Below, piece by piece: positions 3,664 through 4,095 of a stretch of DNA of 51,847 nucleotides (positions are counted from its first letter, which is position 1; every line of letters starts with the position of its first letter). Below the pieces are notes generated by a model. The model was given only the letters and a program-made list of their open reading frames with translations, was not told the origin of the DNA and did not search any database. The position numbers and the translations under genes are program-made. The stretch comes from Atractiella rhizophila (Eukaryota), in assembly GCA_021432655.1 (NCBI GenBank), contig MU271506.1, forward strand, positions 1 through 51,847, written 5' to 3'.

Positions 3664-4095
3664 ATGAGGCTCAGCCTAGCAATCTTCCTCTCAGTTCTTT
3701 CCCTCAGTCTCTCCCTCCCCAACCCTGTCAATCCCGAACTCTCCGCCTACTGCCCTTGGAAGCGATCAGACGGCTCCATAGACGTGAAGAGGTGCATTGG
3801 CTCCAACCCCCCTGAACGCGCTCAGGCTCCATCTCCCAACGGAGCGGAGTTCGAGGAGAGAGCTTACTGTCCCTGGAAGCGGTCAGACGGATCAGTCGAT
3901 GTGAAGAGATGCATTGGCTCCAACCCTTCCGCGCGAGCACTTCCCGCTTCTCCCACTCACGTTGAGTATGAGAGGGCTGCTGCTTACTGTCCTTGGAAAC
4001 GCTCTGATGGATCGGTTGACGTGAAGAGGTGTATTGGATCGAATCCTTCGGAGCGGGCTTTGGCGCCTGTGGAGACGGAGGGAGTGGAGATGTAG
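3664..4095 (+). CDS. Secreted tandem-repeat peptide precursor (KEX2-processed repeat protein / RiPP-precursor-like), 143 aa
   Basis: Intronless ORF with hydrophobic signal peptide MRLSLAIFLSVLSLSLS and three copies of AYCPWKRSDGS(I/V)DVKRCIGSNP at 3745-3810, 3862-3927 and 3982-4047, separated by divergent acidic Ala/Pro spacers ending in EER/YER. Confidence 0.9.
   Translation: MRLSLAIFLSVLSLSLSLPNPVNPELSAYCPWKRSDGSIDVKRCIGSNPPERAQAPSPNGAEFEERAYCPWKRSDGSVDVKRCIGSNPSARALPASPTHVEYERAAAYCPWKRSDGSVDVKRCIGSNPSERALAPVETEGVEM

Follow-up and report, generated by a model that had tools for sequence, protein, structure and literature searches.

An orphan, secreted-type repeat precursor of Atractiella rhizophila with KR pairs between conserved cysteines: a candidate Kex2-processed repeat protein

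Does Kex2 cut KR pairs that lie within a 13-residue disulfide loop? The question is posed by the layout of an open reading frame (ORF) at positions 3664-4095 (+ strand) of contig MU271506.1 (GenBank assembly GCA_021432655.1) from the basidiomycete Atractiella rhizophila (Pucciniomycotina, Atractiellomycetes), within a stretch of 51,847 nucleotides (nt) that we analyzed as a whole and refer to as the window. The ORF runs from ATG to TAG over 143 codons and encodes a secreted-type precursor in which the 22-mer AYCPWKRSDGS(I/V)DVKRCIGSNP occurs three times, in copies of equal length that are identical at 21 of 22 positions. It is a real, spliced, polyadenylated and transcribed gene, its repeats exceed chance by far, and the repeated peptide is under strong selection. 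We favor, with a probability of about 0.5, the reading that it encodes an orphan KEX2-processed repeat protein (KEP), in which cuts at six KR pairs would release SDGS(V/I)DV as a heptapeptide three times over, the remainders staying linked through their cysteines.

The precursor reads, in order, MRLSLAIFLSVLSLSLSL-PNPVNPELS, unit 1, PERAQAPSPNGAEFEER, unit 2, SARALPASPTHVEYERAA, unit 3 and SERALAPVETEGVEM, so that a preliminary description of the locus as a secreted-type precursor with three cysteine-bracketed 22-mers and internal KR pairs proves exact in sequence and coordinates, down to the hydrophobic leader. This leader consists of MR and a 16-residue core of Leu, Ser, Ile, Phe and Val, with the Pro-rich PNPVNP behind it; it is strongly hydrophobic (best 10-residue Kyte-Doolittle mean 2.69, 9-residue windows 1.8-2.6) and is called as a signal peptide on these heuristic grounds. 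Every unit holds two cysteines (C-x13-C) that enclose two KR pairs, and the six KR (amino acids (aa) 33, 42, 72, 81, 112 and 121) are the sole dibasic pairs of the protein, their Arg codons varying among the copies (CGA/CGG/CGC and AGG/AGA/AGG). The spacers, described earlier as Ala/Pro-rich with ER and AR sites, indeed carry ER/AR at both borders and are rich in Glu as well. A unit has a net charge of +2 (four basic and two acidic residues), the protein after residue 19 has a net charge of 0, and the 143 residues contain no N-glycosylation sequon. The precursor stands alone in the window, in which tblastn returned no second copy (next best E 0.30) and no other ORF sharing the leader-plus-repeat architecture was found. 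Its features are the following.

3664..4095, + strand: coding sequence, 143 aa plus TAG, beginning at the first ATG of the spliced mRNA
3664..3717, + strand: predicted signal peptide, aa 1 to about 18, hydrophobic core
3745..3810, + strand: unit 1, AYCPWKRSDGSIDVKRCIGSNP, aa 28-49
3760..3792, + strand: KR - SDGSIDV - KR of unit 1, candidate Kex2 sites plus heptapeptide
3811..3861, + strand: spacer 1, PERAQAPSPNGAEFEER, acidic and variable, AlphaFold2 (AF2) predicted local distance difference test (pLDDT) score <50
3862..3927, + strand: unit 2, AYCPWKRSDGSVDVKRCIGSNP, aa 67-88
3877-3909 and 3997-4029, + strand: KR-heptapeptide-KR of units 2 and 3
3928..3981, + strand: spacer 2, SARALPASPTHVEYERAA, AF2 pLDDT <50
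3982..4047, + strand: unit 3, AYCPWKRSDGSVDVKRCIGSNP, aa 107-128
4048..4092, + strand: C-terminal tail, SERALAPVETEGVEM

The conservation of the peptide contrasts with the divergence of its DNA. Compared pairwise, the three 66-nt copies are 83, 77 and 80% identical and differ by 9, 13 and 13 synonymous and by 1, 1 and 0 non-synonymous codon differences, which in Nei-Gojobori terms corresponds to synonymous proportions (pS) of 0.66, 0.93 and 0.86, at or near saturation, and non-synonymous proportions (pN) of 0.020, 0.020 and 0. Under neutrality, replacements this scarce would have a binomial probability of 1e-8 to 2e-5. The spacer DNAs are 53-61% identical in global alignment and have diverged except for short [PS][EA]RA and E[FY]E(E)R borders. 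Synonymous saturation and drifted spacers together indicate that the duplications are old, and at the DNA level the array went unreported by Tandem Repeats Finder, as is to be expected for old, diverged copies. Mutation of the repeat-induced point mutation (RIP) type was considered as the source of the synonymous differences and set aside; by eye, the changes mix transitions and transversions, over copies of only 66 nt. Throughout, AYCPW, both KR pairs, SDGSVDV and CIGSNP are all held fixed. Since conservation is as strong in the AYCPW of unit 1 and the CIGSNP of unit 3 as in the rest, the contiguous 22-mer, and not the piece between two KR sites, is the selected unit, which favors pairing of the cysteines within units and means that the flanks matter: with all 22 residues frozen, they would belong to the product or to a required fold, beyond a mere role as spacer.

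Part of the region 3400-4400 is contained in 20 of 22 listed public runs (six recorded as RNA; 15 studies). Four public runs, X1, X4, X10 and X15, were aligned in detail and define the untranslated regions (UTRs) of the transcript as follows.

3514..3592, + strand: 5' UTR exon; the contig starts at 3514, so the true 5' end may lie further out; no ATG in these 79 nt
3593..3649, + strand: 5' UTR intron, 57 nt, GC..AG, borders GCACG...TTCAG
4109..4173, + strand: 3' UTR intron, 65 nt, GT..AG, starting 13 nt past the stop codon
4174..4263, + strand: last 3' UTR exon, poly(A) added after about 4263

In X1, one contig (record 2) joins 3514-3590 to 3648-3739 at a joint (3590>3648) that can slide by 2, and an identical joint follows from TTGACTCTTAGCAA, a loose end that precedes 3650 in X4. 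The 3' UTR intron is spliced out at joints 4106/4108>4174 in X1 and X4 and is retained in contigs of X1 (records 5 and 6), X4 (record 15) and X10 (record 8), while an X4 contig bears a loose end of 24 A behind 4263. Splice-site orientation and A tail show the RNA to come from the + strand, by which an antisense frame at 3728-4135 is ruled out as the gene. The start ATG at 3664, with no upstream ATG in the visible part of exon 1, has A at -3. Lack of a transcript, which the preliminary description had named as a finding that would undo it, is thus dispelled, as two runs contain spliced contigs that cover the ORF, and one of the two also shows a poly(A) tail. Coverage in X4, X10 and X15 is limited to about 3650-4263, and in X15, recorded as root metatranscriptome RNA, two contigs (235 and 234 nt) span 3669-4109. 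Words of the ORF are present in contigs of runs labeled root and soil metagenome, among which X15 was examined and the other metagenome entries amount to small word shares.

Across the four runs the ORF has 15 variable positions, 11 of them synonymous; the other four alter three codons, giving S15A and L16V in the leader and I39V in unit 1. The last of these turns unit 1 identical to units 2 and 3, and V39 is found in all four runs. X1 contains two haplotypes, one equal to the window and the other common to X4, X10 and X15, which may represent two nuclei of a dikaryon or two strains. Over 3690-3999 the window-identical haplotype of X1 has a depth of about 515 and the other of about 787, with 7 differences in 90 nt; the haplotype common to X4, X10 and X15 carries S15A, L16V, I39V and a synonymous change at A61, the window's I39 allele being the rarer form. 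The stretch 4107-4133 has 9 differences between haplotypes, denser by far than the ORF (15 in 432 nt). Two X1 contigs depart from the ORF inside unit 1, at 3763 and 3774, into unlike sequence (17 nt; median 255 nt), and may reflect chimeric assembly, a paralogue or variation in length. In X1 the ORF exceeds its flanks 10-100-fold in contig depth, a figure not counted as high expression, as contig depth cannot rank genes.

We then asked whether the precursor belongs to a described family. The preliminary description had recognized none, and this is borne out by Pfam, PDB, protein, metagenome, literature and peptide-catalogue searches. Pfam at E <= 10 gave 8 weak rows, none reaching the cut-off, a PDB sequence search gave nothing at E <= 10, and a word-indexed homologue search over proteins of 78-251 aa gave 166 candidates, none with E <= 0.01. 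The 265 pattern matches in JGI metagenomes were not upheld by tblastn in any case. The exact sequence is absent from a collection of 15 billion proteins; in the ESM Atlas it is present letter for letter. Structure hits in the ESM Atlas all had TM <0.5, and a Foldseek search of PDB with a 36-aa model had a best E of 6.1. Feature hits in the ESM Atlas (all <0.9, with an MF_alpha cluster third at 0.82) were discarded as uninformative, being gone once the leader was removed. The motif strings had no match in a full-text literature search, nor do they occur in the supplement text of the two KEP catalogues (PMC6339444, PMC7329392) or of a Trichoderma survey (PMC7099791) of peptides that are made ribosomally and modified post-translationally (RiPPs), text in which long files may be truncated. 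The name Atractiella is likewise absent from the supplement text of PMC6339444 and PMC7329392, and KEP surveys may never have covered this genome. By all these comparisons the precursor appears as a lineage-restricted orphan without recognizable relatives.

An exhaustive phmmer search against 1.84 billion protein representatives gave 13 hits (E 5.4e-10 to 7.9e-4, none <= 1e-10), and these bear on a first alternative, namely that the precursor derives, in degenerate and secreted form, from the EsV-1-7 cysteine-rich repeat (PF19114). Its unit would then be CIGSNP-spacer-AYCPWKRSDGSVDVKR, with the neighboring cysteines C44-C69 and C83-C109 belonging together. Ten of the 13 hits were scanned with Pfam, and six of these ten (P0003, P0004, P0005, P0007, P0009 and P0014) are PF19114 proteins (192-321 bits) that share with the precursor the motif Y-C-x2-[HK]-[KR]-x-D-G-x-[VI]-D-[VI]-K..C-I and, at about 38-40 aa, the repeat period, in a family with a patchy distribution over eukaryotes and viruses (PMC7457493). 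Yet PF19114 itself has no match to the precursor even at E <= 10, Pro and Lys stand in place of two of the four metal ligands that the hits show (C-x4-P and C-x2-K here, C-x4-C ... C-x2-H there), and the E-values, at 5e-10 or weaker, are sums over three identical query units aligned in register. The PF19114 hits, inspected by eye, also have no obvious N-terminal hydrophobic leader, whereas the precursor has one, so that the local motif YC..[HK][KR].DG.[VI]D[VI]K..C and the repeat period are alike and the secreted context differs. Profile-profile comparison of single units by hhalign, the three units against 24 units from the six hit proteins, returned a probability of 50.4% (P 1.6e-4, 19 columns), for a pairing chosen post hoc from 1.84 billion proteins. 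We regard common descent with EsV-1-7 as very improbable, and the likeness as an unproven resemblance. The remaining phmmer hits comprise a plant-like protein with repeats, three bacterial proteins that repeat 'ACILKRS(E/D)GAA', a WD40-like protein with 'CTWPRPDGS', one with 'YCEWLYGDNRAS', and P0010, and all 13 were rejected as relatives, being summed in-register matches of a single short motif. P0010 (179 aa, 28% identity) has three 39-aa repeats ending in ELQAFCPWN, hence the same period and an A[FY]CPW motif, and has neither leader nor KR; the resemblance is probably due to chance.

With homology giving no answer, architecture remains, and here the precursor resembles the KEPs. Le Marquer 2019 defines these by a signal peptide, a minimum of three repeats and KEX2 sites that separate the repeats, with motif sizes from 3 aa (PMC6339444); the precursor has a predicted signal peptide, three repeats and a KR on both sides of each SDGS(V/I)DV. 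KEPs are nearly universal among fungi, 2560 of 7878 stand alone as orphans and 22% have a DUF3328 gene nearby (PMC7329392), and linear peptides derived by KEX2 and KEX1 have been detected in basidiomycetes (PMC9769878). In common with such proteins the precursor has a leader, at least three near-identical repeats, a KR-flanked peptide and a small stand-alone gene for which neither a DUF3328 neighbor, among the ORFs scanned, nor homologues were found. It is unlike the KEPs of Le Marquer 2019, Umemura 2020 and Vogt 2022 in the placement of its KR pairs, which two invariant cysteines enclose within the conserved unit; the 28-29-mers between KR sites are moreover conserved at their ends and not in the middle, and cleavage is here a prediction. 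Judged by these traits, the precursor falls within the known and very diverse KEP class, its distinguishing feature being KR pairs enclosed by a conserved cysteine pair. Secreted repeat precursors with KR sites also include the ascomycete alpha-factor-type pheromone precursors (PF04648/PF05436), from which ours differs in having no hit to these Pfam families at E <= 10 and in KR being followed by SD and CI, with no XA/XP signature of Ste13. As the organism is a basidiomycete, the analogy is loose, and in basidiomycetes KEPs are not used as pheromones (PMC6339444).

Under the favored reading, the leader would route the precursor into the endoplasmic reticulum, where the six cysteines would pair, most simply within units (C30-C44, C69-C83 and C109-C123), each disulfide closing a 13-residue loop with a KR pair at each end. 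Golgi Kex2 would then cut behind each KR and Kex1 would trim the basic residues, by which three acidic SDGS(V/I)DV heptapeptides would be released and the cysteine-bearing pieces (...AYCPW and CIGSNP...) would remain disulfide-joined. Besides the heptapeptides, the products predicted from the sequence are an N-terminal piece ending in ...ELSAYCPW, two 28-29-mers CIGSNP...AYCPW and the C-terminal CIGSNPSERALAPVETEGVEM. With pairing within units, these four cysteine-bearing pieces would be daisy-chained by three disulfides; with pairing across the spacers (C44-C69 and C83-C109), the two 28-29-mers would become disulfide-closed rings. The expectation that the KR pairs would be cut at all draws on in vitro work, in which about two-thirds of proteins selected for predicted Kex2 sites were cut there and acidic or small residues were over-represented at P1', P2' and P4' of the cleaved sites (PMC2515848). 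This base rate underlies our value of about 0.5 for cleavage at the KR pairs, and the KR|SD of the units agrees with the acidic or small preference at P1' and P2'.

Several observations weigh against this reading. The rule of Umemura 2020 calls for at least three tandem repeats, each of at least 8 aa, between the Kex2 sites KR, KK, RK or RR (PMC7329392); here the pieces between KR sites alternate between the heptapeptide of 7 aa (three copies) and pieces of 28-29 aa, which occur only twice, and on that account the precursor may have gone unlisted in the Umemura catalogue. The invariant AYCPW and CIGSNP are unnecessary for plain release of a heptapeptide by Kex2. At P4 the KR sites have Pro and Asp, and Kex2 prefers aliphatic or basic residues at this position. 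A tight disulfide loop could, finally, shield both KR pairs, and in an AF2 single-sequence model the unit is compact, a turn plus a helix, with pLDDT up to 87.

These last points lead to the principal rival explanation, in which the KR pairs are shielded by the fold and the 22-mers persist as disulfide loops, the protein being secreted either whole, with flexible acidic linkers joining three mini-domains, or after cuts at x-R|A. In the latter variant another protease would cut at PER|A, EER|A, SAR|A, YER|A and SER|A and release ligands of about 25 aa or weakly cationic peptides. All 22 residues are frozen, as they would be in one folded or binding unit, R-A borders are conserved around the units, and the acidic spacers offset the basic units to a net charge of 0. 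Folded KR sites can evade Kex2: about one-third of the proteins tested in vitro were left uncut, with fold and accessibility deciding (PMC2515848). AF2 single-sequence models show a K:V bridge around RSDGS and, after it, VKRCIGS as a short helix, and a 36-aa fragment reaches a mean pLDDT of 70.4 (57, 87, 77 and 55 in blocks of 10 residues, the middle two covering most of the unit), while the whole protein has a mean of 52.3, with 62-73 in the units and <50 in the spacers, too low for a claim about its fold. The hairpin turn that the preliminary description placed at RSDGSV thus finds a counterpart in the modeled turn at RSDGS, although such a model lends it little weight. Confidence in these models is modest, however, Foldseek found no PDB match for the 36-aa model, and two exposed-looking KR pairs per 22-mer, in all three copies, resemble a Kex2 substrate. 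ER and AR are poor Kex2 sites, no protease is known here for such monobasic borders, and the N side of unit 1 has no R-A border at all (ELS|AYCPW). We consider intact loops a possibility worth keeping in view, though one that we do not expect.

The intact loop also bears on function. An antimicrobial role was among those proposed from the four basic residues of the unit, an argument weakened by its two acidic residues; for an antimicrobial that acts on membranes, the resulting +2 is low and hydrophobic residues are few, and neutral or acidic products are what Kex2 is predicted to yield. The precursors of the Impatiens Ib-AMP peptides are comparable in that several basic cysteine peptides of about 20 aa are split by acidic propeptides in a secreted precursor. 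Ib-AMP peptides, which are of plant origin, contain four cysteines, are more highly charged and lack dibasic sites in their interior. A further alternative, by pure analogy, would see in the units canonical protease-inhibitor loops, with KR-S as bait for serine proteases of Arg/Lys specificity from either the plant or competitors. A basic P1 and a Ser P1' in a short disulfide-closed loop, present three times and strictly conserved, are suggestive of this. Bowman-Birk loops, in which a substrate-like bait is presented as in SFTI, have 7 residues between the cysteines and a Pro-Pro motif; the loop here has 13 residues and no such motif, and no sequence or fold match was found with Pfam, PDB or Foldseek, which makes an inhibitor a far-fetched proposition.

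Returning to Kex2 cleavage, its most elaborate form would combine the two elements of the unit, the disulfide staple and the KR pairs: Kex2 and Kex1 would excise the invariant heptapeptide from a disulfide-stapled loop and leave cystine-linked chains, an insulin- or killer-toxin-style maturation executed as a mini-unit three times over. In proinsulin and in the yeast killer preprotoxins K1 and K28, a connecting peptide between dibasic sites is excised, by a kexin-type protease, and the flanking chains are kept together by disulfides, and the same would apply here. Ours differs in being a tandem unit of 22 aa, in that the heptapeptide is itself invariant, in the daisy chain of four pieces and in showing no sequence similarity to these proteins. 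The preliminary description had anticipated such a maturation with AYCPW linked to CIGSNP as the product, which as written does not follow, for Kex2 and Kex1 alone would give the daisy chain and not free AYCPW/CIGSNP pairs, for which extra cuts at ER/AR would be needed. We hold the idea tentatively, on balance doubting it. If true, one precursor would yield two conserved kinds of product, SDGS(V/I)DV and an AYCPW=CIGSNP cystine core.

KEP-type precursors also supply dikaritin pathways (PMC7329392, PMC9769878), and this opens the alternative that the precursor is a RiPP, its conserved flanks serving for recognition by tailoring enzymes whose genes lie elsewhere, and the core being modified or cyclized upon release. 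The reach of conservation beyond the KR sites into the flanks would suit such a role. Against it speaks the neighborhood of the gene. Pfam scans covered 41 of the 52 window ORFs of at least 120 aa and, in 1-13 kb (1-4818 and 8525-12654), 99 ORFs out of the 158 with 45 aa or more, the latter scan omitting ORFs that overlap the peptide ORF or the gene at 4560-8524 or lie beyond 12.65 kb; such ORF scans may miss intron-split genes. Among the ORFs so scanned, no DUF3328/UstYa, tyrosinase, methyltransferase or prolyl oligopeptidase was found, hence none of the close-by DUF3328 genes by which dikaritin and ustiloxin clusters are recognized. The 99 ORFs matched only IF-2B, and the 41 matched IF-2B (1-687), Zn2Cys6 (12698-13246), an SDR, NF-Y/histone-fold, nitronate monooxygenase, one TPR protein and, at 44-49 kb and so some 40 kb from the peptide gene, two P450 fragments. 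A RiPP is for these reasons improbable, and of the KEP and dikaritin setting proposed earlier the KEP-like layout stands, while the dikaritin analogy, drawn from ascomycetes, is loose for a basidiomycete with no DUF3328/UstYa among its scanned ORFs.

Other features of the window can be noted briefly. Directly downstream, at 4560-8524 (+), lies a very Ser/Pro-rich gene without Pfam match and with long frames of 634 and 699 aa, the second part of which is BT69DRAFT_1322792: the ORF 6425-8524 is 100% identical to NCBI 'hypothetical protein BT69DRAFT_1322792 [Atractiella rhizophila]' (639 aa). The P450 fragments, at 44377-45186 and 48707-49531 (+), are C-terminal and cover the same profile region (279-447 of 462), which looks like a tandem P450 duplication; between them lie a 25-N assembly gap (48248-48272) and the TPR protein (45734-46879, -).

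What, then, may the precursor be for? Atractiella rhizophila is a Populus root endophyte. The acidic or neutral products, the charge of only +2 of the unit, the root-endophytic habit of the fungus and the root metatranscriptome coverage lead us to prefer signaling over membrane-active antimicrobial action, and the precursor is likely a candidate source of an extracellular signal or interaction peptide in a root and soil setting. To our knowledge, functions are known for a minority of the catalogued KEPs, and studies of KEPs from root symbionts are few. The KEP survey of Le Marquer 2019 was itself prompted by a root symbiont, Rhizophagus irregularis, which is rich in KEPs (PMC6339444). Should Kex2 leave the loops uncut, the gene would encode a small orphan secreted repeat protein. 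Should it cut them, a disulfide-linked multi-chain product would arise from a fungal repeat precursor, for which no precedent was found in the literature passages and supplements searched, and maturation in the manner of insulin or killer toxin would make this an undescribed class of fungal peptide from a root endophyte, possibly a signal to the plant or to neighbors. Transcribed, with its peptide fixed despite near-saturated synonymous sites, and carried by a root endophyte, the precursor is a candidate for KEP roles in signaling between plant and fungus or between fungus and microbe.

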